Shown here piece after piece: positions 15,902 to 63,915 of a DNA stretch of 64,000 nt. Location of the stretch: the IMG/VR virus record IMGVR_UViG_3300023178_004374; one strand, given 5' to 3'. The notes below the pieces were generated by a model. The model did no database searches and was not told the DNA's origin. It saw only the letters and a list, made by a program, of their open reading frames with translations. Every line of letters starts with the position of its first letter. The stretch's first letter is position 1. The translations under genes and the position numbers were made by a program. This DNA comes from an uncultured virus (IMG/VR IMGVR_UViG_3300023178_004374) (Duplodnaviria; Heunggongvirae; Uroviricota; Caudoviricetes).

Positions 15902-15902
15902 A

Positions 15903-40184: not shown

Positions 40185-40264
40185 AATCTACCATATTATG
40201 AGCCGAATGTAAAGGAAAAAATGCATTTTATTTGATTTTTGTTTCGTTTAAAAACAATCACTTA
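40185..40264 (-). promoter_or_regulatory. Early promoter with upstream IHF-like box
   Basis: TTTACA-N17-TAGATT; AAACAA-TCAC-TTA at 40252-40264 (one mismatch). Confidence 0.72.
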
Positions 40265-41956: not shown

Positions 41957-43197
41957 GATTCTAATACTTTCTTTAATTCCTGCTCAAAAGCCAAGGCGTT
42001 TGTTTTTCTTAATAAATGTTGACGATTAAACTGTGTTTTTTCTCGAACACTGGATTGATTAAATAAATCTTTATTTACCCATAATCTCTTAACATTATCT
42101 ATAATGCAATTATGATCTTGTCCTATAAAAGAGTTAGGAGATCGTAAATTATCCCATTGGAAATCAAATAACTCATCATAAACTTGATAACCTAAATTTC
42201 CTAGTGCATGATTATGTCCTGGTCCAGCACTAATTATAAATGGCTGCTCTGCCATAATGTGTTTAAAAGTTTTTTCTGTAAAAAAATGTGAAGCCCAAGA
42301 TACTTCAGCTACAATACTAAAATGACTATCATACACACCCATAGGAATTCTACGTTCAGCGGAATTGTATTTACTATGATAATCAAAACTAGAAATATCA
42401 TATTGATCTTCAAATGGAATATGTTTATGTAGTTGTTCAGTATTTTTTAAACATTGGAGAAACAATGCTTGATGTTCTTTACTAAACCACCTAATTTGAT
42501 TTTCCCATAGAAATTCTAAATCATTCCAAGTCATCATATATTTTGAAAAATAATCTCCTAATACAGTAGAATAAAATACATTTTCTTCACCAATCTCATT
42601 AAATAATGCTTGCAACATTAATGTGGCTGGATATTTTCTAATCTCACCAGGAATAAAATTACAAAAATATTTTTTCTTTTCTTTTTCTCTTGGAGAAGCA
42701 TTTATTCTCCACTCAATATTATTTCTTTCATGGTTAATTCTCATATTAAATTCAAACATATTTAAATTATGAGTAATTTTACGAAGATCTGGATCAACTA
42801 ATTCTGGCCATTGATTGTCTGTTGATTCAAGATGTTGTGAAAGAATTTTAATATTATTTTCTATTAGATAATCTTTATGCTTAAACCAAAAATATTGATT
42901 TTCTATTTCTGGTCTTAATTTACTTTCAGTAAATTCCCATGAGTAGTCAAGCCAAATTTCTATATTATTATCTAATCCCCATTGTATGTGTTCCCAATAA
43001 GGAAACTCTTCATGAAGAAATGCTGTAGCTGGTTCCAATGGTAGGAACATTAAATTTTTTTCTTTTTTCTTTGGCTTATCTTCGAAGATATGTTTTCTAG
43101 TACAATACTTCTTACCAGTCATTTCTTCATACTGCTCAATGAGAGTATAGTAAAATTTTGTAGGTTGATCTTTAATACAATAATAATTAAAGTGCAT
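41953..43197 (-). CDS. Hypothetical protein, possibly glycosyltransferase-like (TEKTFK family)
   Basis: FSIVAE...FFTEKTFK...PFI...LGY..YDELFD. Confidence 0.55.
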   Translation of the reverse strand: MHFNYYCIKDQPTKFYYTLIEQYEEMTGKKYCTRKHIFEDKPKKKEKNLMFLPLEPATAFLHEEFPYWEHIQWGLDNNIEIWLDYSWEFTESKLRPEIENQYFWFKHKDYLIENNIKILSQHLESTDNQWPELVDPDLRKITHNLNMFEFNMRINHERNNIEWRINASPREKEKKKYFCNFIPGEIRKYPATLMLQALFNEIGEENVFYSTVLGDYFSKYMMTWNDLEFLWENQIRWFSKEHQALFLQCLKNTEQLHKHIPFEDQYDISSFDYHSKYNSAERRIPMGVYDSHFSIVAEVSWASHFFTEKTFKHIMAEQPFIISAGPGHNHALGNLGYQVYDELFDFQWDNLRSPNSFIGQDHNCIIDNVKRLWVNKDLFNQSSVREKTQFNRQHLLRKTNALAFEQELKKVLES

Positions 43198-49478: not shown

Positions 49479-49690
49479 CGTTTTTTATCAAGTTTTTTTA
49501 TACCTGTTGTCCAATTATCAGCGGCATCATTTACATAATGAATTGATTTACCTTTAAAATCTTCTGTAAAAAAAATTTTTCCGCCTGAATTAAAGTATTT
49601 AATATAAGCATATTCTTCTTTATAATCAAAATGAACTTCACAATAATCATCATTAAGTTGTGAATACCATGTTGATAATTTTTTACCCAT
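49472..49690 (-). CDS. Hypothetical protein
   Basis: 72 aa; stop within IHF box. Confidence 0.65.
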   Translation of the reverse strand: MGKKLSTWYSQLNDDYCEVHFDYKEEYAYIKYFNSGGKIFFTEDFKGKSIHYVNDAADNWTTGIKKLDKKRK

Positions 49691-50369
49691 CTAAGATCTC
49701 CATTATACTAGGATAAATTGCAGATATTGCTTTTGCTATTTCTTTTGCCAATTCGATATGTTCCATTTGTGTCCCATTTGCCGTGCGCAAATCAATGTAA
49801 TGTATCCAAGAACGAATGGTGCCATTAACATAAAGACGAGAGACTGTGTTTCCTTCCGGCAAAACAGCCCTGGCTTGTTCCTTGGCAATCCCGTTTTCAA
49901 TTGCCCATTCGTATGCTGCTTTTGCTTGATTGATAACACTCTGTTGGTATCCTTCCCATTGCATTTGTAATTCTTTATCATTAATACTTATACTATTTTG
50001 ACGATTTTTAGTGTCTTGTAATCGTGCTTCTCTTAAAATAAAATTGTCATTAAGATCGCGGATGTCAGCATACCGCTGAGAAAACTCTTGAAAGGAAAAG
50101 GAGCGGTGTCGAAGGAATTGTCGGGCAATGTCTCTTGTGGTTTCGACTTCGAGGCAGGCGCTTGCCATTTCGAATGGTGACCAGTGCTTGTGCTTGATGA
50201 GATATTTAAGTAGCTTTGTTGTTGTTTTGGTGTTAGCTTGGTTTTGTGGATTGGAGACACGGGCGCAATAGGCGACGAGGTCTTGGATGTTATCAAGCCC
50301 CGCGTAACCAAGTTCTCCTGCGTGGATACGACCTGAGGGTTGGCTATAGGATATGAGACGTGCATGCAT
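49683..50369 (-). CDS. thyX: Flavin-dependent thymidylate synthase
   Basis: HWSPFE, RQFLRHRSFSFQEFSQRY, KEQARAVLP. Confidence 0.95.
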   Translation of the reverse strand: MHARLISYSQPSGRIHAGELGYAGLDNIQDLVAYCARVSNPQNQANTKTTTKLLKYLIKHKHWSPFEMASACLEVETTRDIARQFLRHRSFSFQEFSQRYADIRDLNDNFILREARLQDTKNRQNSISINDKELQMQWEGYQQSVINQAKAAYEWAIENGIAKEQARAVLPEGNTVSRLYVNGTIRSWIHYIDLRTANGTQMEHIELAKEIAKAISAIYPSIMEILDG

Positions 50370-50378
50370 TTAGTTCTC

Positions 50379-51746
50379 CTAGTTTAATTTAAAATCAGCA
50401 AATTTATTTCCAACATCTGTTTTATCAAATGTAGGCGTATCATCTATTAAAGTTTGTTCTTTATCATCCACATCATATAATTTCATTTTAGATCGATCTA
50501 CACCAATCACAAAACGTTTTTTATATGTTGGATCATTATATCTATTCTTTAATTGTTTAACTGCAAGTTGACCCATACCTTCTAGTTCTTCTGTTGAGAT
50601 GAGTGCGAACATGAGGTCTGCGGTTGCGGGTAATCCAAAAGATTCGGACGTATCTTCAAGCCCAACATCTGTGTTAGAATAACCAGAACGAGTCGTTTGC
50701 GTTGCAGAGACGATCGGAACGTCGAACTCGACCGCAAGGCCACGTATTTCTTCAGCGATTGCTTTAATGTAGTTGTATGAATTAATTGCACCGCCCATTC
50801 CTTTCATTCTACTTGATGCACAAATATTTAAATAATCAATGTATATAATATCAGGTTCAAATGATCGTTTTAACTTAAGCTCATTGAGCAAGGCACGGAA
50901 GTGTGCTGCATTGGCCTGACCTGTTGGATACTCTTTTATAATTAGTTTACCACTTGTCTTTTTAGATAATGTTGTCACTCTATCGGCATACATTGACTTA
51001 CTTAAATTTGGAATTTGATCAATTGGTATATCGAGAAGATTAGCATCAATACGTTCAGCAATTCTTTCTTCAGCCATTTCCATAGTAAGATATAGCACGT
51101 TTTTATTATCTGCTAAATTCGCAGCAGCACAATGACACATAAACAAAGACTTACCAACACCAGTGCCTGCAAGACAAATATTAAGTGTTTTATTTGGTAA
51201 ACCACCTTTAGTGATTTTATTAAAGAAGTCAAGGTCAAATGGAAGTCTTTCTTCATCGCGGTGGTAAAACTCATATCGTTCATCAGAATTTTCTATATAA
51301 TCATGTCCAATATTCGTATCAAAAGAAACACCTAATGCTTTGGTTAGAATATCTGGTAAAGCATTCTTAGATAAACTTTGGTGTTTGCCATCAATAATAG
51401 TTATTGATTCCATGATAGCGTTATATAGTGCACGATCTTGACACCATTTTTCTGCAGTATCATAAAGCCATTGTTGATCGCTTTCTTCTTTATCAAATAA
51501 TTGCGGGATGATTTCTATAGCATGTCGATATTGCTCTTCAGTAAATGATTCGCTTTGTTCAATTTCAATTTTAAATGATTCTTCATTTGGAATCTTATTA
51601 TATTTAGCAACAAACTTTGCGACTTCTTTAAATATTTTTTGATACGTACCTTCAAAATAGTCTGGCTTAATAAAAGGCAAGACTTTTCTCATAAACGTTT
51701 CATTAGTAATAATGTTTTTAATTATAGTTTGTTCAATGGAATTCAT
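50379..51746 (-). CDS. 41: T4 gp41-like replicative helicase
   Basis: AGTGVGKS, EMAEERIAERIDAN, IDYLNIC, SATQTTR, SESFGLPATAD, QLKNRY. Confidence 0.95.
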   Translation of the reverse strand: MNSIEQTIIKNIITNETFMRKVLPFIKPDYFEGTYQKIFKEVAKFVAKYNKIPNEESFKIEIEQSESFTEEQYRHAIEIIPQLFDKEESDQQWLYDTAEKWCQDRALYNAIMESITIIDGKHQSLSKNALPDILTKALGVSFDTNIGHDYIENSDERYEFYHRDEERLPFDLDFFNKITKGGLPNKTLNICLAGTGVGKSLFMCHCAAANLADNKNVLYLTMEMAEERIAERIDANLLDIPIDQIPNLSKSMYADRVTTLSKKTSGKLIIKEYPTGQANAAHFRALLNELKLKRSFEPDIIYIDYLNICASSRMKGMGGAINSYNYIKAIAEEIRGLAVEFDVPIVSATQTTRSGYSNTDVGLEDTSESFGLPATADLMFALISTEELEGMGQLAVKQLKNRYNDPTYKKRFVIGVDRSKMKLYDVDDKEQTLIDDTPTFDKTDVGNKFADFKLN

Positions 51747-52030
51747 TTGTATCCTTCAAGTGATTCAGAAATAATTGATATTAATATGTCACCAGCATAA
51801 CGTTGAAACTCTTCATTGTCTTCTGTTAAATCTTGATCTGGTGTTTCAACAATTTCTAAGTTAAATGTCATCCTAGTATCTGTTTCATCGAGTCCATCAC
51901 CTTCCAGTGCGATTTTACCATAGGCAATTACAGTTTCAATATAATCTCCTGTTAAAAATCTCACATTCCAATGATTATCATCTGTAGATGATGGAATCAA
52001 TTCATAATCAATATTTTCTTTATGGTTCAT
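51743..52030 (-). CDS. Acidic protein at the T4 gp40 position
   Basis: Lies between uvsX and gene 41, as gp40 does in T4. Confidence 0.55.
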   Translation of the reverse strand: MNHKENIDYELIPSSTDDNHWNVRFLTGDYIETVIAYGKIALEGDGLDETDTRMTFNLEIVETPDQDLTEDNEEFQRYAGDILISIISESLEGYK

Positions 52031-53079
52031 TCAATTACTTCCTCTACAATAGCATCCATTGATACTTGATCTTGGTATCCAATTGAATATTGTTTTTTTA
52101 GAAACTCTTTAAAATTAGTATTAGCAAAAATGCTATCCCAAAATTCTTTTTCTAAAGTTTGATCATGCCTAACCTTTTGGCCAATTTCACCTGTCTCCAT
52201 ATTAACCGCTGCATACCAGCCATTTGAAGGTTTAGTAACGTACCCACCAACAAGAGCCACGTCAAGCAACCCAGAATAATTGCGAACACCGCCGTCCCAG
52301 GAAACAGTAATAGGAATTTTAGACTTTTCTTTAACATACCTGCTCTTCTCCACATTAATAACAAAATGATAACCTTGAATCTCGGTACCTTTTTTGTCTT
52401 GTTGTCTGCCGAGAATCCAGATATTGTCAGCTGAATAATAAATGCCTGTTCCGCCACCAACAATATCTCTAGGAAATAATCCAATTTCTTTATATGTATG
52501 ATTTACTGCAAGTAAAGGAATATTCTTCATAGCAAGATAAGGTGTTGCCATACGAAATAAACCTTTGAGAGCTTTAGCGCGAGACATATCTGCTACAGAT
52601 TTTTCATTGAGAGTGTCTTCCATTTCTTTCTTTGAAGCAAGATTGCCAATGGAATCTATAACTACTACAACTTTATCATCTCTATCCAAATTTTCTAGTT
52701 GTGCAATTAAATCAAACTTTAATTCTTCTACGTTTGTAATAGGAGTGTGCAATACTCTATTTGTATCTACGCCAAATTGTTCAAAATAACTTTGAGGCGA
52801 ACCAAATTCTGAATCATAAAAAAGCATAACAGAATCTGGATGTTTTTTCATATATGCTCCAGCAATTAAAAGAGCAAAGGATGTTTTAAAATGTTTTGAA
52901 GGGCCAGCTAAAACAGTAAGACCAGGTGCTAGCCCACCGTCAACTGATCCTGATAATGCAACATTCACCATTGGAACGTCTGTTGGAACCATATCTTTTT
53001 CAGTAAAAAATTTTGATTCTGCAAGAACTTCAGTATGATTTAACTTTGAGTTCTTTTTTAATTTATCCATAATAGACAT
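52027..53079 (-). CDS. uvsX: UvsX RecA-like recombinase
   Basis: AGPSKHFKT, YDSEFG, DSIGNLASKKE, GGTGIYYSAD. Confidence 0.95.
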   Translation of the reverse strand: MSIMDKLKKNSKLNHTEVLAESKFFTEKDMVPTDVPMVNVALSGSVDGGLAPGLTVLAGPSKHFKTSFALLIAGAYMKKHPDSVMLFYDSEFGSPQSYFEQFGVDTNRVLHTPITNVEELKFDLIAQLENLDRDDKVVVVIDSIGNLASKKEMEDTLNEKSVADMSRAKALKGLFRMATPYLAMKNIPLLAVNHTYKEIGLFPRDIVGGGTGIYYSADNIWILGRQQDKKGTEIQGYHFVINVEKSRYVKEKSKIPITVSWDGGVRNYSGLLDVALVGGYVTKPSNGWYAAVNMETGEIGQKVRHDQTLEKEFWDSIFANTNFKEFLKKQYSIGYQDQVSMDAIVEEVIE

Positions 53080-53089
53080 AGGATACTCC

Positions 53090-54280
53090 TTACATAAATG
53101 CTTCTAATGTTGCCGGTTGTTTTTCAGACCAAAAGGTTTCTGATTTATTATCTTGAATTACGAAATCTGACTCAACAAGACAAGCATCACCGCTTAAAAA
53201 TCTTTTTACATTTTCAGCCATGTCTTGTGCAGTAGTTACTGGAACGTTTTGACAAATCATATTAATGTTTTTTCGACCACCTACTAATTGAAAATCCTTA
53301 GGCATTTTCATAATTGACAAAGCTTCTCTAATATTTAAATATCTGTCTTGATCTGGATGAGTAAGTTCCATTGGAAAATGACCAACAAAAGCACCAATAT
53401 AATTTTTACCAACTTCTGTAGTTTTTCTCATAATGTTACCACCAGCTTTTAGCTTTTCACCCATCCTACGACATTTACGTGCATGATTTTCATGGCCATT
53501 ATCGTCCATCCATTTTGCTACATCTTCGTAATCAACACCTTTGTCTTCAATATAATGCAATGGATTGGTTGTTTTTTCAATTAAATTGAAAAATTCCATA
53601 TGACTAATACCACCATGCATTTCTTGTAATACGTATTGATAAAAAGGTTCTTCAGATGGAGTCTTACTATTTGTTAAAGTTTCAAACATTGGATCTGCTT
53701 CATTGGTTGCAGCAGAACGAATAGTGTCTTCAATTTTTTCATATTGTCTTTTATAAAAATTAAATCTTGGAATTGAGTTACCTTTCCAGAAAAAATAGAA
53801 AGTTCTATCTCTAATTTGACTTAGTCCATGTAAAATAGATTTAGTTTTATAAATGCTAAAGGTATAACCATTTTTTCTTGCTAGTTGACGAAGTTGTGCT
53901 ACAACCTTTTCACCCATTTTGCTTGCTAATCTTGGAGCATTTTCTCCCCAAAAAACTGTTGGCTGAATTGATTCCAAAACATATTCTGCTGACTTGACCA
54001 TCCAGTCATTAGTGCTGCTATCAGCATTGCTGCTAGGAGAAAGGGAAGACAAGCCAGCGCAAGGGCAAACAGTGTTGACAACATCGACACTATGAGGCGC
54101 AAGACCACCCACGTCAAGCTTATAATAAGGAACGCTATTGTCGTAATAATTAAGAAGTTGGCTGTCATTTGCTTCAAAGTCCGTATATGATAATATATAT
54201 TCAGGTTTTGTCCCAAATACATTTTGCATTGCTATTGTTTCTCCACCAATGAGTGGAACTATACTTGCATACTTAACCAT
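53090..54280 (-). CDS. DNA cytosine-C5 methyltransferase-like protein (divergent motif I)
   Basis: PCAGLS (IV), GENAP (VI), QIRDRTF (VIII), RYL..RE....P.DF (IX), QNVPV (X); motif I reads VPLIGG. Confidence 0.75.
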   Translation of the reverse strand: MVKYASIVPLIGGETIAMQNVFGTKPEYILSYTDFEANDSQLLNYYDNSVPYYKLDVGGLAPHSVDVVNTVCPCAGLSSLSPSSNADSSTNDWMVKSAEYVLESIQPTVFWGENAPRLASKMGEKVVAQLRQLARKNGYTFSIYKTKSILHGLSQIRDRTFYFFWKGNSIPRFNFYKRQYEKIEDTIRSAATNEADPMFETLTNSKTPSEEPFYQYVLQEMHGGISHMEFFNLIEKTTNPLHYIEDKGVDYEDVAKWMDDNGHENHARKCRRMGEKLKAGGNIMRKTTEVGKNYIGAFVGHFPMELTHPDQDRYLNIREALSIMKMPKDFQLVGGRKNINMICQNVPVTTAQDMAENVKRFLSGDACLVESDFVIQDNKSETFWSEKQPATLEAFM

Positions 54281-55091
54281 AATTTACATTCTGAGCCTTT
54301 TCTCTTTCATCTTTATCATAACAATTACGATACTTATTATTCTCTTCGATAACTTTTTCTAAAACGGAAAAAGATTTCGCAAAGTTCGCAAACGCTGCTG
54401 TGTCTTTTGGGAAGCAAGCGCCACCAAAGCCACGCTTGCCATCAAACCCAGGCACAGTAATATGAGACCTACCAATTCTTGGATCTGTTCCAATTGCGTT
54501 ACTGATAACACCATAATTTCCTCCAAAGTTTTCTATGACATCATAAAATTGATTCATCCATAAGACCTTTGATGCAAGGAAACAATTAATTCCATACTTT
54601 ACAAAGCTTGCATCAGTGGACGTCATGTGATATACAGGACACGGCTTGCATAAGCTAAAGTCTTTATAGATTTGTTCTAATCTTTCTGTAGCTTCTGGAT
54701 TTCCTCCAAAAATATGCATAGATGGATTTACAAAATCTTCACATGCATTTTTTTCAGTTAAAAATTCAGGATTGTAAACTACTCTAGCACCTCCACCGCG
54801 TCTTGAAAATTTTTCAATTATGTCAGGTGTCACAGTTGATTTAATAACAATGATTCCTGATCTACGTAGCAAAAGTTTTGTTACAGTATCAACTACAATA
54901 GAACAATCGATCGATCCATCTTTACCCATAGGTGTAGGAACACAAACAAACGTTATATCTTCACTTAATTCTACATCATCTAAAGTAGTATTATAGAGAG
55001 GATCGATGATAGTTTTAGTAATAGCTTTATTTGAAAAGCCATAATCCACAGCTTTGCCAACAAACCCGTGGCCAACAATTGTCATTCTCAT
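54273..55091 (-). CDS. UDP-glucose 6-dehydrogenase-like (lacks C-terminal domain)
   Basis: GHGFVG, CVPTP, IKSTV, YNPEFL, GFGGACFPKD. Confidence 0.85.
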   Translation of the reverse strand: MRMTIVGHGFVGKAVDYGFSNKAITKTIIDPLYNTTLDDVELSEDITFVCVPTPMGKDGSIDCSIVVDTVTKLLLRRSGIIVIKSTVTPDIIEKFSRRGGGARVVYNPEFLTEKNACEDFVNPSMHIFGGNPEATERLEQIYKDFSLCKPCPVYHMTSTDASFVKYGINCFLASKVLWMNQFYDVIENFGGNYGVISNAIGTDPRIGRSHITVPGFDGKRGFGGACFPKDTAAFANFAKSFSVLEKVIEENNKYRNCYDKDEREKAQNVNYG

Positions 55092-56050
55092 TAATTAACT
55101 CCATAATAACTTTTGTACCATGTAATGAATTCTTTAACACCATCTGTTATAGAAGTTTTAGGATTATAACCTAACGCTTGTAATTTAGTAGTGTCAGACC
55201 ACGTCTCAGGGACATCTGCAGGATGTTTAGGCGCTAATTCTCTTTCTGCTTTCCGATCAAGATTTTTTTCAATTTCATCTACAAAATCTAATAGATTAAC
55301 CTGTTGGCCATAACCAATATTATAGATTTCATGCCATTCTTGATTGGTTTCATTCATAGCTTTATCTACTACTAATTCTATACCATCTACGATGTCTTGT
55401 ACATAGGTAAAATCACGTTTCATATCACCATAATTATAAAGTGTGATTGGTTCACCTTTAACGATTCCATCTGTGAATTTAAATAGAGCCATGTCTGGTC
55501 GACCATATGGTCCATACACTGTAAAGAAGCGAAGGCCTGCAGAACGTGAAATTTTAGAATGAGAAAACTGACATTCATTTACTCGTTTAGACCAACCATA
55601 TGGATTGTTTTGTAAATCTGGTCGATCATGTTCATTCCAAGGTAAAGGCTGTCCATGCATAACGCAGGAGCTTGATGCATATACAACTGGTATGTTTAGT
55701 TCTTCACATACTTCTATAATACGTTGTGTTCCAGTTATGTTAGTATCAATATATGGTTGCGGTTCTTCAAGAGCGTGTCTTGGATTTGCATATGCAGCTA
55801 AGTGTAATACAATATCTACATCTTTCATAAATGACGTATTGTCATTAATTACTTTAAAGTCTTCAATGTCCCCTCGCATAATAGGAACATTATATTCTTC
55901 TTGTAAAATGTTAGCACGATCTTCTTTTAATTGTGGATCGTAATAATCATTAAAATTGTCTAAGCCACATACTTCCCAATTATTTTTTGCGAAGTGCCTG
56001 GCTGCGTGAAAGCCGATCATGCCGGCAATACCTGTTACTAAAATTTTCAT
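55091..56050 (-). CDS. NAD-dependent epimerase, UDP-glucuronate 4-epimerase type
   Basis: TGIAGMIG, DNFNDYYD..LK..R, YASSS, YGWSK, LRFFTVYGPYGRPDMA. Confidence 0.85.
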   Translation of the reverse strand: MKILVTGIAGMIGFHAARHFAKNNWEVCGLDNFNDYYDPQLKEDRANILQEEYNVPIMRGDIEDFKVINDNTSFMKDVDIVLHLAAYANPRHALEEPQPYIDTNITGTQRIIEVCEELNIPVVYASSSCVMHGQPLPWNEHDRPDLQNNPYGWSKRVNECQFSHSKISRSAGLRFFTVYGPYGRPDMALFKFTDGIVKGEPITLYNYGDMKRDFTYVQDIVDGIELVVDKAMNETNQEWHEIYNIGYGQQVNLLDFVDEIEKNLDRKAERELAPKHPADVPETWSDTTKLQALGYNPKTSITDGVKEFITWYKSYYGVN

Positions 56051-57294
56051 ACGAAAAATTCCTCTAGTCCTTGTGGTTGGTTTTCAGTTGTGTTAATAGC
56101 AAGATCAATAATTTCATTTACAACATCCTCACCATTGGAGTGTTGTTTCCAAAATTCAAATGCCATTTCTCTCCAATCATCTCTCATAGACGGATCGTTT
56201 TTGAGTTTTGTCATCATTTCTTGACACTCTTTAAAATTAGTATAGTCAACACCAAGAGTGCCAGAATTTTTGCATTGACTAATAGGATCACCCTGTACAG
56301 GGTGTATTACGTTATCACAGAAATGTTTATGGAATAATGGTACAGTGCCAGATGCAATACATTCAGCATGACAATTTTCAATATTGTTACCATATGTTTC
56401 TGCTTTTAAATGATAAAGATCTGAACCAAATGCTGAACGTGCCATTCTCATCATTGCCTCATTATTTATGTATTGAGGATATAGATAAGCACCTTTATTG
56501 GTTTCTTCTTTACCATACAAGTCAGGTGTAAACTTGACTTCATTAAATTTCTTTTCTGGTCTAAAATAATTTTCAACCATGCGGCGATCAACAGGATTAT
56601 CTTCTTTATTATCACGATATAAAACAAGAGGATATTGTATAGAAGCTTCTAAACCTTCAAGGACAGTTATAAATCCTTGCTCCATCAAAGCATCTTGATG
56701 GAAATCAATCATTAAACTAGGACCTTTCCACATTGCAGTACGACCAATCCAACGAACCATATTATGCTGTTGTTCTTCAATTGGTCGCCAATACTTTTGA
56801 CGGTGATCCTCATAATCAAAACCCAAACCCATTTTAGTTAATGGAGTTTGGATTCTATTTTTCTTCATAAATTTTGAGAAATCATTTTCAAGACTGTGAG
56901 TCATAATGACATCAACATTTTCGCAAACTTCTTTTAGATTAGCATTACGTGCTATTGAAGCAGCTTTATGGTCTACATTAATAAACGCTTTACGTATTTT
57001 TAGTCTCTGTAAAAATGGTACAAAATTATCTTGACAATCTTGTGGATGAGACTTAGAAGGTACTGAATAAATGATTGCTAAATCATACATTGAATTAATA
57101 ACATCTGCAGTTAATTCCCACTGCGTACCCATTACAAATTCTTTTTGATCAATTTCTAATCCTTTAGCTCGTCCCCATTTTTTATCAATTGCAGAATAGA
57201 TATCTGCTCCTGTTACTTTTTGCATTTGAATAGCACATTGTGTTACACCGCAGCCTTCAGTACCACGACCAAGGATAATAGCAATTCTAGTCAT
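56047..57294 (-). CDS. T4 DNA alpha-glucosyltransferase homologue (GT-B)
   Basis: RIAIILGRGTEGCGVT matches T4 Agt N-terminus (RGLEGCGVT); RWIGRTA.WKG; similar length. Confidence 0.78.
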   Translation of the reverse strand: MTRIAIILGRGTEGCGVTQCAIQMQKVTGADIYSAIDKKWGRAKGLEIDQKEFVMGTQWELTADVINSMYDLAIIYSVPSKSHPQDCQDNFVPFLQRLKIRKAFINVDHKAASIARNANLKEVCENVDVIMTHSLENDFSKFMKKNRIQTPLTKMGLGFDYEDHRQKYWRPIEEQQHNMVRWIGRTAMWKGPSLMIDFHQDALMEQGFITVLEGLEASIQYPLVLYRDNKEDNPVDRRMVENYFRPEKKFNEVKFTPDLYGKEETNKGAYLYPQYINNEAMMRMARSAFGSDLYHLKAETYGNNIENCHAECIASGTVPLFHKHFCDNVIHPVQGDPISQCKNSGTLGVDYTNFKECQEMMTKLKNDPSMRDDWREMAFEFWKQHSNGEDVVNEIIDLAINTTENQPQGLEEFFV

Positions 57295-57351
57295 TTATGA
57301 TTCCTTAAATTTACAAGTGTGTGATATACGTATTTATGATTATTAAATATA

Positions 57352-57380
57352 ATTCTAACATATTTTTACACAAATGTAAA
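57352..57380 (-). promoter_or_regulatory. Early promoter of the agt-like/epimerase/ugd/MTase operon
   Basis: TTTACA-N17-TAGAAT. Confidence 0.72.
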
Positions 57381-57389
57381 CTATTTTTT

Positions 57390-57704
57390 TTATTTTGGTG
57401 AAGAACAATGCATGTGACATTCTTTACATGCATTTTCAGGATGTTCATATAATTCTTTGTGAAAGTTATACCACTGTTCTGATTCTATAATATCAAGAAT
57501 GTCATCATTTCGATCAACTCTTAATTCATCATCCCATAAATTTTTAGTATTATTTTTATAGTTGTGATACTTATCTAAATAACAACAAGGAAGAAGATGC
57601 CCTGAAGCAGTAAAGGCTAAACCATTTCCTGCACCAGGAAATCCATCATTGGGTTTATAATCGCCTTCCATTGTTACGCTCCAACATTGAGGATAAAGTT
57701 TCAT
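57390..57704 (-). CDS. Stand-alone SPASM/twitch domain protein
   Basis: PQC, GHLLPCC, CKECHMHC. Confidence 0.7.
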   Translation of the reverse strand: MKLYPQCWSVTMEGDYKPNDGFPGAGNGLAFTASGHLLPCCYLDKYHNYKNNTKNLWDDELRVDRNDDILDIIESEQWYNFHKELYEHPENACKECHMHCSSPK

Positions 57705-58426
57705 ACTCTTTTTTTCTCACCAAATAGTTTTTTAGAAATTAAATTTATATTTGTAGGAGGAGCAACTGGACTGTCAGGATTAAACCTACCTGAAGTAAGT
57801 AATATTAATTCTACATCTATTTCATCTGCCATTTCTTTTGCTTTCATAATATCATGTTCATTATATGCAAATGGAATGTATTGCCAAATGACTCTCCACC
57901 TTTCCCATTCAGGTTCTCTTCTTTGCCTTGATGCTACATATTTCATTGCCTCAAAAGCTGAATGAAAATCTTGGCCAACTCTATGAATAGCTGCTTTTTC
58001 ATCTATGCCATCTATACCAAAGTGCCATTCTATTCTAGTTGGAAGTTGCCAAGCTACATCTACAAGTTCATCCCAATACTCTTGTTTTTTTCCAGATCCA
58101 TTTGTATGAATTTCGATTTTTTCTAAATATGTTACATCATCTATTGATGACAATAATGAAATAAAATCTTTGTGATAGATAGGATCAGAAATCTGACCAC
58201 AAAATGAAATGCCACTTCTTACGAAGTTAGTTAACTTTCTCAATTCTTTTGATTTTAAATCACCATAAGATTTCCTATAATCAGAAATCATAGGTTGTCC
58301 TTGAACTTCAGATTGGCGTGAACAAAACTGACATTGAAGTAAACACCTATGAGTAGTGTCTACATTTATTACTGTCCATCTGTATCCCTCTATAATTTTG
58401 GAATACATTTCAGCAAATGAATTCAT
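57701..58426 (-). CDS. Radical SAM protein
   Basis: CLLQCQFC, CGQISDP, HTNGS, FGIDG, WQYIPF.YNEH. Confidence 0.85.
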   Translation of the reverse strand: MNSFAEMYSKIIEGYRWTVINVDTTHRCLLQCQFCSRQSEVQGQPMISDYRKSYGDLKSKELRKLTNFVRSGISFCGQISDPIYHKDFISLLSSIDDVTYLEKIEIHTNGSGKKQEYWDELVDVAWQLPTRIEWHFGIDGIDEKAAIHRVGQDFHSAFEAMKYVASRQRREPEWERWRVIWQYIPFAYNEHDIMKAKEMADEIDVELILLTSGRFNPDSPVAPPTNINLISKKLFGEKKRV

Positions 58427-58844
58427 ACTCTACGCCTGCTTCATCAAATAATTGTTTAGTCATATTCCATGACTCGACCCACTGTTCTTTTATTTTTTGT
58501 CTTGGCATAACAACTCTTTTTATTCCTACCTGAATAACACCAAGAGCACAATGGTTGCAAACAGGCAAGCCATGAACAAATAAGGTAGCTCCATCTAATG
58601 ATACTCCGTTGTATGTTGCGTTATAAATTACATTCTGTTCAGCATGTACTATGTACTTGTATTTAGTTTCTCTCACTGCATATCTATCAAGAGAATCTGT
58701 TATTCCTCTAGGAAAACCATTATATCCTTGAGATAAAACTTGACCTTTAGATCCTACAGCAATAGCACCGATTTGAGAAGATGGATCTTTAGACCACTTA
58801 GATACTTCTTCTGCTAATTTTAAATATCGTATATCCCATTTCAT
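58410..58844 (-). CDS. cd: dCMP deaminase
   Basis: GYNGFPRG, HAEQN, PVCNHC. Confidence 0.92.
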   Translation of the reverse strand: MKWDIRYLKLAEEVSKWSKDPSSQIGAIAVGSKGQVLSQGYNGFPRGITDSLDRYAVRETKYKYIVHAEQNVIYNATYNGVSLDGATLFVHGLPVCNHCALGVIQVGIKRVVMPRQKIKEQWVESWNMTKQLFDEAGVEYEFIC

Positions 58845-59089
58845 ACTTCTTGCTCTTCACCAAAAGATTTTTTTAATATTTCTTTTATTACTTTTTCTTG
58901 CAAACAGTTTACTGCTAATATTGGCATGTCTTTTCCATATTCTTCTTTTAATTTTCCAAGATACGCGATTTGATCTAATGGATCTCTAATACTAACCATA
59001 CATTCTTCTCTAGTTTCAAACCTAGGCTTTTCAAAAATATAAACATCGCCTTGCAATGTTCCAAATATTACTACTATTAACCAGTTCAT
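58841..59089 (-). CDS. Small membrane-anchored Cys-pair protein
   Basis: MNWLIVVIF, FETREEC, VNCL. Confidence 0.65.
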   Translation of the reverse strand: MNWLIVVIFGTLQGDVYIFEKPRFETREECMVSIRDPLDQIAYLGKLKEEYGKDMPILAVNCLQEKVIKEILKKSFGEEQEV

Positions 59090-59235
59090 TTTACATACCA
59101 CTTCATCCAGATAGGTCCTATTCTAATAGAATAATACCTGGTAGTTTCATTATTACATCTAACTTCTTTAGGTGTAATTTTAAACTTCCAAGTACTAATA
59201 TGCCATATCCAAGTAATGTAAAATTTTATTAACAT

Positions 59236-59793
59236 CTACCATTTAACGATATAATAATTTTCATTTAGTTGTTTAATAATAGGATTATAAGGATACAACA
59301 ATTTTTGTAATTCTTCTTTAGTGTATTTATGGTATTCTTCAGCAATGCCATCATCATACCATTCTGCATAAAATATAAAAAAAGCATGCTGAGCATTAAA
59401 ATTTCTATAGTGCTCCAACAACTTAGGAAGACCTATGTAATTAGGTACACCAAATAAACTAACAAGAACATCACAGCTATCATCTATATTTTCATTACAA
59501 TCAGCTAAAACAAAGTTATAATCTTTAAACTTTTCTTTAGCATTATTTAACATGCCTTGAGATAAATCATATCCTGTAAAATTTTCTGGTCCAGGCCATT
59601 GTAAGATAGGAATGTCTTGTCCGGATCCAACACCTAATGAAATAATTTTTCCCTCTTCTATATTCTCCATCCAAAACTCATGAGCATCTTTCTCATCTTG
59701 CATATAGATGTTGTTTTCCCATCCGCCATCAACATATTTTTCTTCATAATATGTCTTAGCAGCATGATTATATTTTTCAACTAAGTCTACCAT
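59236..59793 (-). CDS. Class I SAM-dependent methyltransferase
   Basis: ISLGVGSG, GYDLSQGML..A. Confidence 0.75.
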   Translation of the reverse strand: MVDLVEKYNHAAKTYYEEKYVDGGWENNIYMQDEKDAHEFWMENIEEGKIISLGVGSGQDIPILQWPGPENFTGYDLSQGMLNNAKEKFKDYNFVLADCNENIDDSCDVLVSLFGVPNYIGLPKLLEHYRNFNAQHAFFIFYAEWYDDGIAEEYHKYTKEELQKLLYPYNPIIKQLNENYYIVKW

Positions 59794-60470
59794 CCTATAT
59801 CTCCATACATATTTACTGCAATTTTAGCACACTCATCAAGAGATAGACCTTTTTCATTATCTAATTGATCATATGCATATTCTAATTCTCTACACCCCAT
59901 ACAATAACCACAAGGTTCAGTGGCGTGAGTGTTACATGAAATAGTTGTGTCATAAATATAGTCAAATCCATTCCGTCTTCCTAAATCAATTACATGATAT
60001 TTTTCAATATGTTCAAACGGATTCTTCCAAAATTTATCATTAGTTAGCCATGGGCGTTTTGCCATTCCCTTTTGGTCTACATTCCAACGAGGAAACCATT
60101 GAGGATGTGGAGGCAAAATATTTCCACAATAAAGTTCTTCAATATCTTCATCATTTCTTACATCTTGAAACGCAAGCATAAGTCTAGCAAAATGATTTTT
60201 CATTTCCCAATTATGATACTTTTCTCCGATGATTTCTAATTCTAAATCAACGTCAAATTTTTCAAGGATTTCTTCAATTAAAGGTTTCTTAGGATCCCAT
60301 GAAGTCTGTACATTAAAAATTCTAATTTCTGTATCAGGAAAATTGTCCCATAATAATTTAAAAAGTGTAGTGCTGTCAGCGCCTGATGACATTAACACAC
60401 CAATCTTTTTAGCTGGATTTAGTTTTACAATTCTTTCATCCCATTCAGGACCACATCTAAATTCTTTCAT
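59787..60470 (-). CDS. QueC-like PP-loop ATPase
   Basis: MSSGADST PP-loop; TISC...CGYCMGC.E zinc motif. Confidence 0.72.
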   Translation of the reverse strand: MKEFRCGPEWDERIVKLNPAKKIGVLMSSGADSTTLFKLLWDNFPDTEIRIFNVQTSWDPKKPLIEEILEKFDVDLELEIIGEKYHNWEMKNHFARLMLAFQDVRNDEDIEELYCGNILPPHPQWFPRWNVDQKGMAKRPWLTNDKFWKNPFEHIEKYHVIDLGRRNGFDYIYDTTISCNTHATEPCGYCMGCRELEYAYDQLDNEKGLSLDECAKIAVNMYGDIGW

Positions 60471-60479
60471 TCCATATCC

Positions 60480-61178
60480 TTATTTAACTAAATGGAAGTG
60501 ACGTTCATACACGTGTAAATTCATGACTTGCCACATTAACATACCTTTTTCAATAGGACCATGTTCACCATAAATTTCTGCTAATGAATTCCATTCTCTT
60601 ACAAATTTATCCATTAAGTATTGTGCCCAAGCATAATCATTTTTATATCCATAAACAACATCATTAGAACGCATTTGAGATACCATTGAAAGTATGCCAT
60701 CACGAATATAAAATGTTTGTGCATTAGTGCAAATAAAATCAGATTTACCGCCTTCATTATATTCACACCATATTGATGGACGGTTATAAATCATTTGTGC
60801 ACGACGTGAATCTGGATTAGCTTGTAATTCATCAAAGGCATGTTGGAATTGATAATGATATTTTTCAGAAAAAAGTAAGTGACCATAATTAGAATTTATT
60901 TCACCATGTTTATTTGCTGCGTATTGCCATGCTTGAGGAGGTGCATCTGAATCAACACCATTTATATCATAAATGTTTGTTGAACCTGATTCATACCAAG
61001 CTATTTCTTTGTTAATATATTCTTGACTAGGTGTACCAAAAATAGCAGGTTCAGTGCATAAAAAATTAGCACCAATTAACTCAATAGTTTTTTGACCTGT
61101 TTTATCTATAGTAAAGGCTTCATCATTTAGTTCATCAATAAAAAATTGACGTATGTCACTAACCGTTTGGAGAATCAT
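60480..61178 (-). CDS. 42: dCMP hydroxymethylase (T4 gp42 family)
   Basis: INSNYG, SDFICTN (catalytic Cys), MRSNDVVYGYKNDYAW (Asp at the dCMP-specificity position), NLHVYERHF. Confidence 0.88.
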   Translation of the reverse strand: MILQTVSDIRQFFIDELNDEAFTIDKTGQKTIELIGANFLCTEPAIFGTPSQEYINKEIAWYESGSTNIYDINGVDSDAPPQAWQYAANKHGEINSNYGHLLFSEKYHYQFQHAFDELQANPDSRRAQMIYNRPSIWCEYNEGGKSDFICTNAQTFYIRDGILSMVSQMRSNDVVYGYKNDYAWAQYLMDKFVREWNSLAEIYGEHGPIEKGMLMWQVMNLHVYERHFHLVK

Positions 61179-61596
61179 TTTTTTCTAGCTCTCTTTCAAA
61201 TACTCTTTTACGCAAATCTGATGACGAAAATCTGTGGTCTCGTTTATTAAAATATAAAGAAATATTTCTACGTCTACATTCATCTTTGCCAGTAAAATCT
61301 TTATCTTTATATTCATCACCAAGTATACGTACATCAATTGGATACATGTTTATTATATCAAGTAAATCGGATTCTGTACAATAAACAATGATTTCATCTA
61401 CATATTTTACTGCAGAAAGTTGTTTGTATCTTTCTACTACACTTTGAATAGGTGAGTTTTTTTCTTCACGATCCCAAGACGGATCTACTTGCAATCCACA
61501 AATAAGCCAATCGCATTGTTCTTTTGCTTCTCTTAGCATTGCGATATGACCAGCATGAAGCAAGTCAAACGTACTACATGTAAATCCTACTTTCAT
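61159..61596 (-). CDS. Cytidylyltransferase (TagD/RfaE-like)
   Basis: FDLLHAGH, VKYVDE, SSSDLR. Confidence 0.88.
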   Translation of the reverse strand: MKVGFTCSTFDLLHAGHIAMLREAKEQCDWLICGLQVDPSWDREEKNSPIQSVVERYKQLSAVKYVDEIIVYCTESDLLDIINMYPIDVRILGDEYKDKDFTGKDECRRRNISLYFNKRDHRFSSSDLRKRVFERELEKNDSPNG

Positions 61597-61597
61597 A

Positions 61598-61984
61598 TTA
61601 ACAACCTATTTTATCTACACTAAATGGATCACTATCATCATCAATATGATAACCAACAGTTTCACGCTCAATATCATTATGATTAAATTCTGCCCAGTAT
61701 AGCTCATATGCTACGCCTTCTTTAAGACACTCAAATTGATGATAAAGACCAGGTTTAACTTTGTGATAATCACCTTCATGAAGAATAGTAATATCAACTA
61801 AATCATAATCACGTTGCCATGTACGAATAAGCATCTTACCAGATTCGACATAAAAACCATTCCATTTATAACGATGTAAGTGTTTAGAACACACGCCGCC
61901 TTCTTCCATTTCAATACGATGAAACTCTAATGCACCATTTGCTTCAATAAGCTCAGTAGTGCCCCATACTTTTCCTGCTTTCAT
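61598..61984 (-). CDS. Cupin (sugar isomerase-like)
   Basis: KVWG, CSKHLH..K..F...G, PG.YHQF. Confidence 0.75.
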   Translation of the reverse strand: MKAGKVWGTTELIEANGALEFHRIEMEEGGVCSKHLHRYKWNGFYVESGKMLIRTWQRDYDLVDITILHEGDYHKVKPGLYHQFECLKEGVAYELYWAEFNHNDIERETVGYHIDDDSDPFSVDKIGC

Positions 61985-62059: not shown

Positions 62060-63250
62060 TCACCCATTTATCATCCTTTCTAAGATTTCTAAGACTTCTT
62101 CGCTTCTATCTTCGGCTCCTCTAATTAGAGAATTTGTTACACAATTACGAGTAAATTCTAATGGAAATCTTTTACCTTTTTTATCCATACCAGTATTAAT
62201 TAAATAAACATTAACATCATGTTCTTCTATTTTTTCCATTAACATATCGCTATATACATTTACATTTCTAGGCATAAAAGGTGATCCATAACATGGTGAA
62301 AATATTTTTTTAATTTCTTCAACACCTGCTTCAGTGCCTGGCATTTGACTTGTATATCCAGTTTCAAAGAACCGTCTTACAGTTTCTCCAGAAATTTTAC
62401 TTACTGGAGGAAAACTACCTGTAGCATCCATTGTTAGAAAAAATATATTATTAGGATGTTTGAATTGTGTATCATTTATATATGCATTTTCTACATACTT
62501 TAAAGGATAACTTAATCTAGCATTAGCAGCACCAGGATTTTCTATTACTAATGTTTCAGCTTTTTTTGCAGCTTCCACAGCATTAAAAATAGTTGGATGT
62601 GTTTCAGGTGACAAACCTTCTGATTTAGCATAGCAGCCTTCTTCAACTTTTGCGATGCCTTCTTCATTCCAAGATACTTCATCATCTGAAATTAAACCAA
62701 ATTGAGGATCACTACTTAATGTTGTTTTACCTGTTCCACTTAATCCAAACATAAGATTAGTTTTATCCTTAAAAGTAAAAGCACTACAATGCATTGGTAA
62801 AACATTTTCGTCTGGTAATTCAAATCCTAAAATACCAAACACTCCTTTTTTAATTTCACCTAGAAAAGTAGTTCCACCAATTAACATAATTTTTTCATCT
62901 AAATGTACAGCAATTGTAGGTGGACAATTAATTTCAGTGTTGTGAATAATTTTCCATTCTGCATAATGTTCAGTTGGATCATCTACTACTGAAAACATGT
63001 TTCTTACAAATTGAGCATGTCTATCATCATTAGTTAAGACAGCAAAACCGCGACGAGAAGTATAAAAATGCAAGTAATGTTTATAATTGTATTCATTTAA
63101 ATCTTCATAAAATTCCCAAAAATATTTTTCTTCGCCTATCTTATTATATTTTGGTCTTGATAAATCTAGTTTTCTAGCTAAGTTTCCATAAAATATTTTA
63201 TTCTCAGGAGATCTGCCAGTTGGGTTAGTTATTATTTCTATATTAGCCAT
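62060..63250 (-). CDS. pckA: Phosphoenolpyruvate carboxykinase (ATP), shortened
   Basis: TGRSP..K, GEIKKG.F, PMHCSA, FGLSGTGKTTLS, DDE..W, EGCYAK, GYTS..GTE.G. Confidence 0.88.
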   Translation of the reverse strand: MANIEIITNPTGRSPENKIFYGNLARKLDLSRPKYNKIGEEKYFWEFYEDLNEYNYKHYLHFYTSRRGFAVLTNDDRHAQFVRNMFSVVDDPTEHYAEWKIIHNTEINCPPTIAVHLDEKIMLIGGTTFLGEIKKGVFGILGFELPDENVLPMHCSAFTFKDKTNLMFGLSGTGKTTLSSDPQFGLISDDEVSWNEEGIAKVEEGCYAKSEGLSPETHPTIFNAVEAAKKAETLVIENPGAANARLSYPLKYVENAYINDTQFKHPNNIFFLTMDATGSFPPVSKISGETVRRFFETGYTSQMPGTEAGVEEIKKIFSPCYGSPFMPRNVNVYSDMLMEKIEEHDVNVYLINTGMDKKGKRFPLEFTRNCVTNSLIRGAEDRSEEVLEILERMING

Positions 63251-63915
63251 TTTTCATTCCACCTTTTTTCATCTTCTGGTGTATTAATTTCTATTCCATT
63301 AAATTCAGTATGCAGTATACCTATGTCCCAACCTGTTTTTAACCAGCGCAATTGCTCTAGTTGTTCTATTCTTTCTTCTTCTATTATACCATACTTGCTA
63401 TAGAATTGTAAAGGATTTCTTTTATATCCATAAATTCCTAAATGCCAATCGCCATAGCCTGCCATTCCTCTTCCGAACCAAAGGGCTTTATCTCCACCTC
63501 TTACTACTTTTACAGAGTTAGGATCATTTCGCATTTTTTCTGGCATATCGGTGAAAAGAGTAGTGATAGGGTAATGCTTTAAATGCCATATTACTTTATT
63601 AATCATATGCTTATTCACATCAGGCATATCACCTTGAACGTTTATGTACTGATCATATTCTGGTATTTTATCGAGCGCTCCGGCACATCTTTCTGTACCA
63701 TTATTATATTCTGTAGTATCTAATCGACAATTATTGTCATTAAATAATGAAGCAATTCTATAGTCATCAGTAAGTACATATGTATCTAAACCTGTATCAG
63801 CACAAGTCTCATACACTCTTTCAATCATAGTCATTTCACCAAGATTAACTAATGGCTTACCAGGGTATCTACTTGACTCATATCTCGCTGGAATAAGAAT
63901 AGCGGTGGATTTCAT
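63238..63915 (-). CDS. kdsB: 3-deoxy-manno-octulosonate cytidylyltransferase
   Basis: IPARYESSRYPGKPL, GTER, NVQGD, HLGIYGY, EQLEQLRWL. Confidence 0.92.
   Translation of the reverse strand: MKSTAILIPARYESSRYPGKPLVNLGEMTMIERVYETCADTGLDTYVLTDDYRIASLFNDNNCRLDTTEYNNGTERCAGALDKIPEYDQYINVQGDMPDVNKHMINKVIWHLKHYPITTLFTDMPEKMRNDPNSVKVVRGGDKALWFGRGMAGYGDWHLGIYGYKRNPLQFYSKYGIIEEERIEQLEQLRWLKTGWDIGILHTEFNGIEINTPEDEKRWNEKWLI

Follow-up and report, generated by a model that had tools for sequence, protein, structure and literature searches.

A predicted hydroxymethylcytosine glycosylation island in a marine T4-like phage clade and the possible uronic nature of its sugar

An uncultured tailed virus (Caudoviricetes; IMG/VR record IMGVR_UViG_3300023178_004374), of which a stretch of 64,000 nucleotides was analysed and is called the window below, carries a group of genes that raises the question of what this phage attaches to its cytosines. 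An earlier note, made from the letters alone, had drawn attention to the region 53090..61178, where genes for an Agt homologue, a UDP-glucuronate-4-epimerase-type enzyme, a UDP-glucose dehydrogenase (UGDH, Ugd) and a DNA cytosine-C5 methyltransferase (C5-MTase) lie between uvsX and a homologue of T4 gene 42, and had proposed that the phage makes its own nucleotide sugar and places an acidic sugar on 5-hydroxymethylcytosine (5hmC, hmC). T4 Agt uses UDP-glucose. We therefore ask whether the locus specifies glycosylated hmC, and whether the sugar is glucose or a uronic acid whose donor is supplied by the phage itself. Every sizeable open reading frame (ORF) of the region is on the minus strand, as are the flanking genes described below, and the ORF list and family scans located all of the named genes where the note had placed them. 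As judged from the sequences, the region is very probably part of an island for hmC synthesis and Agt-type glycosylation in a widespread clade of marine T4-like phages. The fuller statement, in which the likeliest single donor is a uronic acid made by the phage, we hold only tentatively, the uronic identity being what we infer from the genes coupled to the transferase.

Hydroxymethylcytosine supply and the glycosyltransferase

The gp42 homologue (60480-61178), which belongs with the thymidylate synthase (TS) homologues, aligns with T4 gp42 (PDB 1B49) at an E value of 2.5e-62, and the alignment bears out the catalytic SDFICTN and the Asp of KNDYAW which had been read from the letters: both motifs match T4 gp42 residue for residue, SDFICTN being aligned to SDFMCTN. 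Some gp42-like enzymes have been described to make 5-hydroxy-dCMP, and the same source gives diagnostic sites in E. coli ThyA numbering, namely N177D for dCMP as substrate, L143D/E for hydroxymethylation and D169N for the 5-hydroxy type (PMC13326640). Like T4, the window protein has an Asp at the L143, D169 and N177 positions (KSDF, RSNDVV and KNDYAW), and among the 60 relatives whose sequences span both motifs RSND...KND is kept in all and xxDF[IV]CTN in 59. Since the Asp at the D169 position is shared by the window and all 60 relatives, the prediction for the base is 5hmC rather than 5-hydroxycytosine (5hoC), and the latter was ruled out because the D169N marker is absent from each of these sequences. 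The gp42 homologue is predicted to be a T4-type dCMP hydroxymethylase with 5hmdCMP as its product. A TET route to hmC was also ruled out for the window clade: Tet_JBP (PF12851) was found in 0/3 clade records, one of them a complete genome, and the same search was positive in phage C48C1, a relative to which we return below.

A dCMP deaminase gene (58410-58844; PF00383, 2.9e-18; phrog_174, 4.4e-41) lies within the region, and the gene for a ThyX thymidylate synthase, said in the earlier note to be separate from gp42, was found at 49683-50369 (PF02511, 5.3e-42). In all five related records a PRA-PH-type nucleoside triphosphate pyrophosphohydrolase scored above the Pfam cut-off, 1.4-7 kb upstream of gp42, which agrees with the MetaGPA co-occurrence network, where a TS homologue, PRA-PH and dCMP deaminase occur together on cytosine-modified contigs (PMC8670742). 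MazG (PF03819) gave weak matches only, which correspond to the PRA-PH gene. A T4 gp56-type dCTPase (PF08761) was detected in 0/5 related records by a weak search, the control of which was positive in 1/14 genomes only.

The Agt homologue (56047-57294) also proved to be what it had been taken for, and over its full length: residues 3-397 align to T4 AGT (1XV5) with an E value of 3.8e-40, PF11440 matches above its 25-bit cut-off (9.7e-31) and phrog_2888 matches with 5.2e-69. In T4 a-gt, Gly15 and Arg204 contact the beta-phosphate, Glu311 the ribose, and His114, His116 and His140 the glucose (PMC6024577, citing Lariviere 2005). The beta-phosphate Gly and Arg and the ribose Glu (EGCG, RWIGR and the aligned Glu) are kept in 56/56 unique clade sequences. 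His116 and His140 are kept in the clade as well, and the His114 position is a Val in all 56 unique sequences. A His is found at this position in T4, Klebsiella phage Metamorpho, Pseudomonas phage PSGBLB0006, Erwinia phage IT22 and the homologue of S-TIM5, which is without an epimerase. Because of this exchange we refer to the protein as an Agt-family (GT-B) DNA glycosyltransferase and not as a glucosyltransferase; the change from His to Val is consistent with an altered sugar pocket, without telling which sugar is bound. From the homology we strongly infer that the Agt homologue has the predicted function of transferring a sugar onto hmC in DNA.

The reading frames for the Agt homologue, the epimerase, the Ugd-like protein and the C5-MTase-like protein overlap by 4, 1 and 8 nt, so that the operon of the earlier note stands as far as these four genes go, while its description as driven by an early promoter is not provable. 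The number of sigma-70-like matches in the region (69) shows no enrichment over shuffles (60.2 +/- 7.4). One candidate, a consensus match only (57352..57380, minus strand; TTTACA-17-TAGAAT with TG), sits in the 95-nt gap 5' of the Agt gene, and TT[TG]ACA-N16-18-TA[TG]AAT occurs in 21/51 unique regions upstream in relatives versus 0.035 in shuffles, the sequences being related and the occurrences hence not independent.

Viral contigs were scanned with the Agt homologue for relatives; 88 loci were confirmed and 80 were kept, at 72-100% identity, and each linkage count considers only the loci long enough to show the neighbour in question. The epimerase gene is directly downstream of Agt in 69/69 loci, in most of them at a spacing of 0-12 nt, and the C5-MTase-like gene is downstream in 50/50. 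On the upstream side are the gp42 homologue (47/47) and the dCMP deaminase (65/66), and a Ugd-like gene comes after the epimerase in 54 of 61 loci. In three loci (L013, L025 and L033) the entire block is found on the opposite side of uvsX-gp41-ThyX; as the epimerase and Ugd genes are sandwiched within the block, its relocation adds little independent evidence for their linkage.

Origin and identity of the sugar

The epimerase (55091-56050) is classed from its structural relatives as a UDP-glucuronate/galacturonate 4-epimerase-type short-chain dehydrogenase/reductase. The closest solved relatives are 5U4Q (2.6e-70), B. cereus 6ZL6 (5.5e-42) and MoeE5 (6KV9; 4.3e-28), the last two of which we take to be UDP-glucuronate (UDP-GlcA) epimerases. 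The PYGWSK motif with the catalytic Tyr and Lys is aligned to PYGVTK, and GRPDMAL is aligned to QRPDMAF, the Arg matching Arg185 of the B. cereus enzyme, the residue by which the carboxylate of UDP-galacturonate (UDP-GalA) is gripped (PMC12338863). Both the top solved relatives and this carboxylate-gripping Arg uphold the assignment to the UDP-glucuronate-4-epimerase type that had been made from the sequence.

The claim of a UDP-glucose dehydrogenase fared less well. The protein (54273-55091) has 272 aa and matches PF03721 and PF00984 only; it aligns to residues 78-295 of the 446-aa UGDH 4A7P and stops after the central domain. Its GHGFVG (NAD) and GGACFPKD (catalytic Cys) motifs are invariant in 29 aligned sequences, and these speak for the claim. 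A length of 270-293 aa is seen in 56/57 relatives. The structural model (pLDDT 91.3) is matched in Foldseek by UGDHs only, with TMq ~0.8 and TMt ~0.5, the matches covering ~80% of the model and about half of each target. The C-terminal UDP-sugar-binding domain (PF03720) has no Pfam match in this protein, and because of its absence we use the name UGDH core, or mini-Ugd, rather than canonical UDP-glucose 6-dehydrogenase. In the complete relative (G003), mini-Ugd is the sole Ugd-like gene. Another Ugd-like gene in the window, with 372 aa the longer of the two (40838-41956, minus strand), lies beside a 414-aa ORF and a Methyltransf_24 gene (40258-43197). It is present at 100% identity in the nearest record only and is absent from G003 and from a further record, G002; confined in this way, it was ruled out as a general source of UDP-GlcA.

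These genes suggest the following scheme. Before replication, as proposed from homology, the PRA-PH-type pyrophosphohydrolase would lower dCTP, the dCMP deaminase and ThyX would provide dTMP, and the gp42-type enzyme would make 5-hydroxymethyl-dCMP, which would then be incorporated into the phage genome. Once the DNA has been replicated, the Agt-family enzyme, a GT-B, would flip hmC out and move a sugar onto it from a UDP-sugar. The donor would most likely not be host UDP-glucose but rather UDP-galacturonate, or UDP-glucuronate, provided by the two genes translationally coupled to Agt: mini-Ugd would convert UDP-glucose into UDP-glucuronate, and the UGAepi-type epimerase would convert the latter into UDP-galacturonate. 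The C5-cytosine transferase homologue may act on cytosines that escaped replacement, the transferred group being unassigned.

Several observations weigh against this scheme. In the searches no T4 gp1-type deoxynucleoside monophosphate kinase was recognised, only a small P-loop kinase of unassigned specificity. The domain which binds UDP in all solved UGDHs is missing from mini-Ugd, and Ugd is not beside the epimerase in 7/61 loci, in one of which (L035) it lies upstream of gp42. All 80 Agt loci form one clade, so that the linkage counts do not represent independent events. The closest isolate, phage C48C1 (Kyanoviridae by record; gp41 68% and UvsX 76% identical), has the gene order DNA polymerase, Dam methylase, primase, epimerase (50%), mini-Ugd (45%) and UvsX. 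Agt and gp42 were not found in C48C1, nor were deaminase, C5-MTase-like, ThyX and Kdo-type genes in 145.8 of its 156.2 kb. A scan with the C48C1 epimerase gave 80 loci of a sister clade with 80-90% identity, all of them with Epi(-Ugd-UvsX-gp41) patterns, and Agt, gp42, deaminase and C5-MTase-like genes were found in 0/80 of these within the flanks. The presence of the pair at the uvsX slot without hmC genes indicates that it is older than these genes and functional without them, and the hmC genes appear to have been inserted on both sides of a pre-existing epimerase/mini-Ugd pair. C48C1 has, moreover, a row of three genes of its own (L171 3584-7031; record 49583-53030), all annotated 'hypothetical', which encode a Tet_JBP dioxygenase (472 aa; 3.3e-19), a 344-aa ORF and a UDP-galactopyranose mutase (6e-70 to 3HDQ). 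This row is likely to be a post-replicative DNA glycosylation cluster, and it lies 13 kb from the pair. The synteny survey suggested by the earlier note thus has a divided outcome, with tight linkage in 80 Agt loci on the one side and, on the other, the seven loci lacking the adjoining Ugd and a sister clade in which, together with C48C1, epimerase and ugd are in part unlinked from an agt-like gene, the finding which that note had said would speak against its proposal.

An explanation that makes use of these observations is that the phage carries alpha-glucosyl-hmC as T4 does, formed from host UDP-glucose, and that the epimerase and mini-Ugd form a cassette of greater age and separate purpose, such as the making of a glycan for the surface or virion or another auxiliary role, around which the hmC genes were inserted by chance. 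Neither Agt nor gp42 accompanies the pair at the uvsX slot in C48C1 and in 80/80 loci of the sister clade, the hmC genes lie, by comparison with C48C1, on either side of a pair that was there before them, and Ugd is dispensable in the seven loci mentioned. The Agt homologue itself is full length and retains two of the three glucose-contacting His residues of T4 Agt, a UDP-glucose user, which likewise weighs against an acidic donor. Further glycan genes (GT25, GT8-like, sulfotransferase) are present elsewhere in the window, and in pelagimyophages Ugd, rfaE and glycosyltransferase (GT) genes have been published as lipopolysaccharide (LPS)-related auxiliary metabolism (PMC7029224), a further point against the scheme. 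However, the epimerase was never found apart from Agt in the 69 loci, mostly at the spacing of a few nucleotides given above, and the His114 position is altered only in the epimerase-linked clade. It has also been reported in a preprint that GTs adjoining an epimerase in phage DNA-modification clusters needed it in all but one of the cases tested (Pyle et al. 2023, bioRxiv 10.1101/2023.12.21.572611), and the T4 interval between gp43 and uvsX houses gp42 and b-gt, both DNA-modification genes. The T4 record gives the order 42, b-gt, segA, uvsX, 40, 41, which agrees with the placing of b-gt between uvsX and gp42 by the earlier note. On balance we regard plain glucose with a bystander cassette as rather unlikely.

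We consider it improbable that another or a more complex glycan is placed on hmC, be it from a different nucleotide sugar, by extension or tailoring of a first sugar (an RfaE-like heptose or glycerol-phosphate, or a KdsA/KdsB Kdo-type sugar), or through oxidation by mini-Ugd of a sugar already attached to DNA. An RfaE-II/TagD-like nucleotidyltransferase gene overlaps the start of gp42 and is found upstream of it in 29/36 loci, and between DNA polymerase and uvsX there are KdsB-like and PEPCK-like genes and, past the window end, KdsA-type, PMM-like and RfaE-II/MPI-type genes. Kdo-5hmC and heptose-5hmC adducts are reported in the preprint of Pyle et al., the missing UDP-binding domain would suit a mini-Ugd acting on DNA, and methyltransferases, an oxygenase and pairs of radical S-adenosylmethionine (SAM) and SPASM proteins make up the variable content of the slot that separates deaminase from Agt. 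Against this, the island has a single recognisable glycosyltransferase, whose UDP-contacting residues are kept, and Kdo-type genes are present in few loci only. In addition, a UGAepi-type epimerase requires a UDP-uronate, which argues that mini-Ugd acts on a nucleotide sugar. Finally, all sugar genes including the Agt homologue could act on glycans of the host envelope or virion, the phage DNA carrying plain hmC and/or 5-methylcytosine. The many LPS-type sugar-nucleotide genes in the island and elsewhere in the window, and the published LPS reading for pelagimyophages (PMC7029224), would fit. We nevertheless hold this to be very improbable in view of the full-length homology to the DNA-specific T4 Agt family, the invariable linkage to gp42 and to a DNA C5-cytosine enzyme, and the situation of the island within a replication gene module.

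Taken together, the proposal of a phage-made donor and an acidic sugar on hmC is favoured by gp42, Agt, the epimerase, their linkage, the His114 change and the parallels in the preprint and in phage XG4 (see below), and is weakened by the truncated Ugd and the sister-clade pair. If the sugar is a uronic acid, a negative charge would be present on every modified cytosine of a common group of ocean phages, with consequences for how the DNA is packaged, for escape from restriction, CRISPR and defences specific to glucosyl-hmC, and for sequencing bias in marine viromes. It would also mean that an Agt of the T4 type can be adapted to acidic donors and that a UGDH can work without its UDP-binding domain. 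Even if the sugar is plain glucose, a DNA-modification island is seen to contain genes that in marine myoviruses are usually assigned to LPS auxiliary metabolism.

The C5-cytosine transferase homologue and neighbouring genes

The C5-MTase of the earlier note is present as a divergent DNA cytosine-C5 transferase homologue with all catalytic motifs (53090-54280; PF00145, 9.4e-18). PLIGG, CPCAGLS, GENAP, QxRxR (Q155/R157/R159) and QNVP, which are motifs I, IV, VI, VIII and X of C5-MTases, are invariant in 26 sequences. The protein scores 65.1 bits versus a cut-off of 22 in Pfam and 29.1 versus 100.65 for TIGR00675, and a sequence search gave no PDB match. The fold of its model (pLDDT 81.8) matches MET1, M.HaeIII, M.HhaI and the C5-carboxymethyltransferase 8YF3 with TM values of 0.5-0.6.

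Among annotated phages, only eight matching records carry a homologue of this gene. Four of the carriers are S-TIM5-type cyanophages, and in S-TIM5 a gene annotated 'ThyA' (L082 5766-6602) is 2.4 kb away. Its product has a Cys at the L143 position and an Asp at the N177 position of E. coli ThyA; the latter indicates that it is dCMP-directed, and it is probably a dCMP-modifying enzyme rather than a thymidylate synthase. An Agt-like gene is found elsewhere in the S-TIM5 genome. In Pseudoalteromonas phage vB_Psh_XG4 (L087 100-6580, unannotated), the genes run from a T4-type gp42 (5.6e-62) through an NTP-transferase/APH-kinase fusion and two GTs to a C5-MTase-like gene, a 131-aa ORF being present as well, and this cluster is predicted to be a parallel hmC-glycosylation module with another sugar supply. 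In Bacillus phage G, genes for an Agt-like protein and a glucose-1-phosphate thymidylyltransferase are found no more than 7 kb from the C5-MTase-like gene. That a C5-cytosine transferase homologue should repeatedly accompany gp42-type enzymes, when these already occupy C5, is puzzling, and the pairing matters even if the sugar is glucose.

The earlier note had further suggested that the nearby radical SAM, methyltransferase and QueC-like enzymes tailor the sugar. The genes concerned, for a SPASM protein (57390-57704; PF13186), a radical SAM protein (57701-58426; PF04055), a SAM methyltransferase (59236-59793; family scan) and a QueC-like PP-loop protein (59787-60470; weak C-terminal match, E 6.7e-6), are not conserved outside the closest relatives, which weakens this part of the proposal. 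Close copies of the radical SAM and SPASM genes are found only in six loci (L001-L005 and L071), which are also the only ones with the SAM methyltransferase and QueC-like genes; pairs with 30-48% identity are present in L016, L017, L064-L067 and L080. The QueC-like protein has the PP-loop SSGADS and a C-terminal Cys cluster, which place it in a family that activates carboxylates with ATP. In other members of the clade, the slot between deaminase and Agt is occupied by methyltransferases, a 2-oxoglutarate (2OG) oxygenase or other radical SAM pairs. In 36 loci the slot holds an ORF of ~125 aa (e.g. L006 659-1063), absent from the window, whose only match is a sub-threshold one of the ORF product to the uracil-DNA glycosylase superfamily (E 0.0011). 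An 86-aa ORF (58841-59101) adjoins the deaminase gene.

A more detailed picture may be drawn, which we think doubtful as a whole. According to it, hmC takes the place of cytosine in a clade of T4-like phages abundant in the sea and is capped with galacturonic acid, the donor arising from UDP-glucose through the minimal UGDH and the UGAepi-type epimerase already present in the phage lineage; in some strains the carboxylate would be amidated or esterified by the QueC-like enzyme and the methyltransferase; and the C5-cytosine homologue, which accompanies dCMP-directed TS homologues in three lineages, would be a required partner that modifies residual cytosine or adds a non-methyl group.

Downstream of the C5-MTase-like gene follow UvsX (52027-53079; phrog_97, 5.5e-89), a 95-aa ORF (51743-52030), a gp41-type helicase (50379-51746; family scan) and ThyX. 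On the other side, the RfaE-domain-II/TagD-like nucleotidyltransferase gene that overlaps the gp42 start (61159-61596; PF01467, 6.5e-15; TIGR02199, 1.4e-18; TIGR01518, 5.6e-18) is followed by genes for a cupin (61598-61984; PF07883), a PEPCK-like protein of 396 aa (62060-63250; PF01293, 1.1e-93) and a KdsB-like cytidylyltransferase (63238-63915; NF003952, 1.5e-48). An identical contig continues beyond the window end, with a KdsA-type DAHP_synth_1 gene directly past it (L186 9034-9819) and with genes for DNA polymerase, a PMM-like protein, PRA-PH, primase, an RfaE-II/MPI-type fusion, a small split P-loop kinase and a 2OG oxygenase. Together, the genes in and past the window make the gp43-uvsX interval an island of ~20 kb with sugar-nucleotide and DNA-modification genes. 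The PEPCK-like, KdsB-like and KdsA-type genes beside gp42 resemble a phage-encoded Kdo-type ulosonic acid pathway.

The remainder of the window resembles a marine T4-like myovirus, with PhoH, 2OG-Fe(II) oxygenases, a carbamoyltransferase, a class II ribonucleotide reductase, RNase H and more glycan genes; a megablast of the region against annotated phages found no near-identical phage record. A glycan-tailoring cluster at 12758-17963 (minus strand) comprises a nucleotide-diphospho-sugar transferase-like ORF, GT25, two Methyltransf_24 genes, a sulfotransferase and a GT8-like gene, and is a possible non-DNA user of nucleotide sugars. At 5683-8277 (minus strand), a Nol-like carbamoyltransferase gene (5683-7044) adjoins a SPASM and radical SAM pair. 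Because MetaGPA describes a carbamoyltransferase acting on hmC (PMC8670742), the window gene was considered for the same role and set aside, since it lies 54 kb from gp42 and has a 43% identical homologue in C48C1, which is without gp42. A SegE-type GIY-YIG homing endonuclease gene (26257-26709, minus strand; PF19835, 4.4e-37) is found beside a staphylococcal-nuclease-like gene and the class II ribonucleotide reductase.

Comparison with known DNA modification systems

The window phage shares with T4 a gp42 with the same catalytic and specificity residues, a dCMP deaminase, a full-length Agt homologue and the slot between DNA polymerase and uvsX. It differs from T4 in having PRA-PH in place of a gp56-family dCTPase, no recognisable gp1, and ThyX rather than a ThyA-type td, and in the coupling of the Agt gene to a UGAepi-type epimerase, mini-Ugd and a C5-cytosine transferase homologue, with a Val at the His114 position. 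C48C1 and the marine clade around it have the same epimerase and mini-Ugd directly upstream of uvsX; in C48C1, however, gp42, Agt, dCMP deaminase, the C5-MTase-like protein and ThyX give way to Tet_JBP, the 344-aa ORF and UDP-galactopyranose mutase.

In the account of Pyle et al., metavirome clusters of a C5-MT, a TET-like oxygenase and GTs were reconstituted, and hexuronic-acid 5hmC (433 amu) was obtained from one epimerase-GT pair (contig 57) and from one lone GT (contig 91). As a category, 5hmC bearing a uronic acid thus has a precedent, and the 'new DNA hypermodification' of the earlier note was an overstatement, even though the enzymes of the 2023 preprint are different ones. GT57 is described there as a GT-A enzyme, and the survey in the preprint mentions, in general terms, GT-B genes beside thymidylate synthase homologues, methyltransferases and epimerases. 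Its subclass II resembles the locus in combining a C5-MT homologue, a GT and an adjoining sugar epimerase in one cluster. Compared by description only, the window phage differs in that Tet_JBP is lacking from the three clade records, hmC is predicted to be made before replication by gp42, and the GT is an Agt-type GT-B accompanied by a Ugd-like gene. In the literature library that was searched, neither this marine cluster nor galacturonosyl-hmC was described, and nothing closer on glucuronic or galacturonic acid with phage hydroxymethylcytosine and nothing relevant on C48C1 came to light.

The arabinosyl-5-hydroxycytosine system of RB69 and DLP3, as described in PMC13326640, is likewise T4-like, with a gp42-like TS homologue, phage synthesis of nucleotide-diphosphate sugar and DNA GTs, whereas the window has no D169N and a different sugar pathway. 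Bacillus phage SP-15 offers a uronic acid in phage DNA, as phosphoglucuronate, and a Ugd homologue in its modification cluster, although the base there is a hypermodified uracil and the linkage a phosphodiester; its Ugd is full length (436 aa), and SP-15 was ruled out as a precedent for mini-Ugd on this account. XG4 is a parallel for a phage-supplied donor in hmC glycosylation, with gp42, a nucleotide-diphosphate-sugar synthesis gene, two GTs and a C5-MTase-like protein, and phage G combines sugar-nucleotide genes, an Agt-like gene and a C5-MTase in a similar way. What is distinctive of the window phage and its relatives among these systems is the gp42 route, the Agt-type GT-B enzyme, the pairing of a UGAepi-type epimerase with a UGDH of minimal domain content, and a wide distribution among marine phages.

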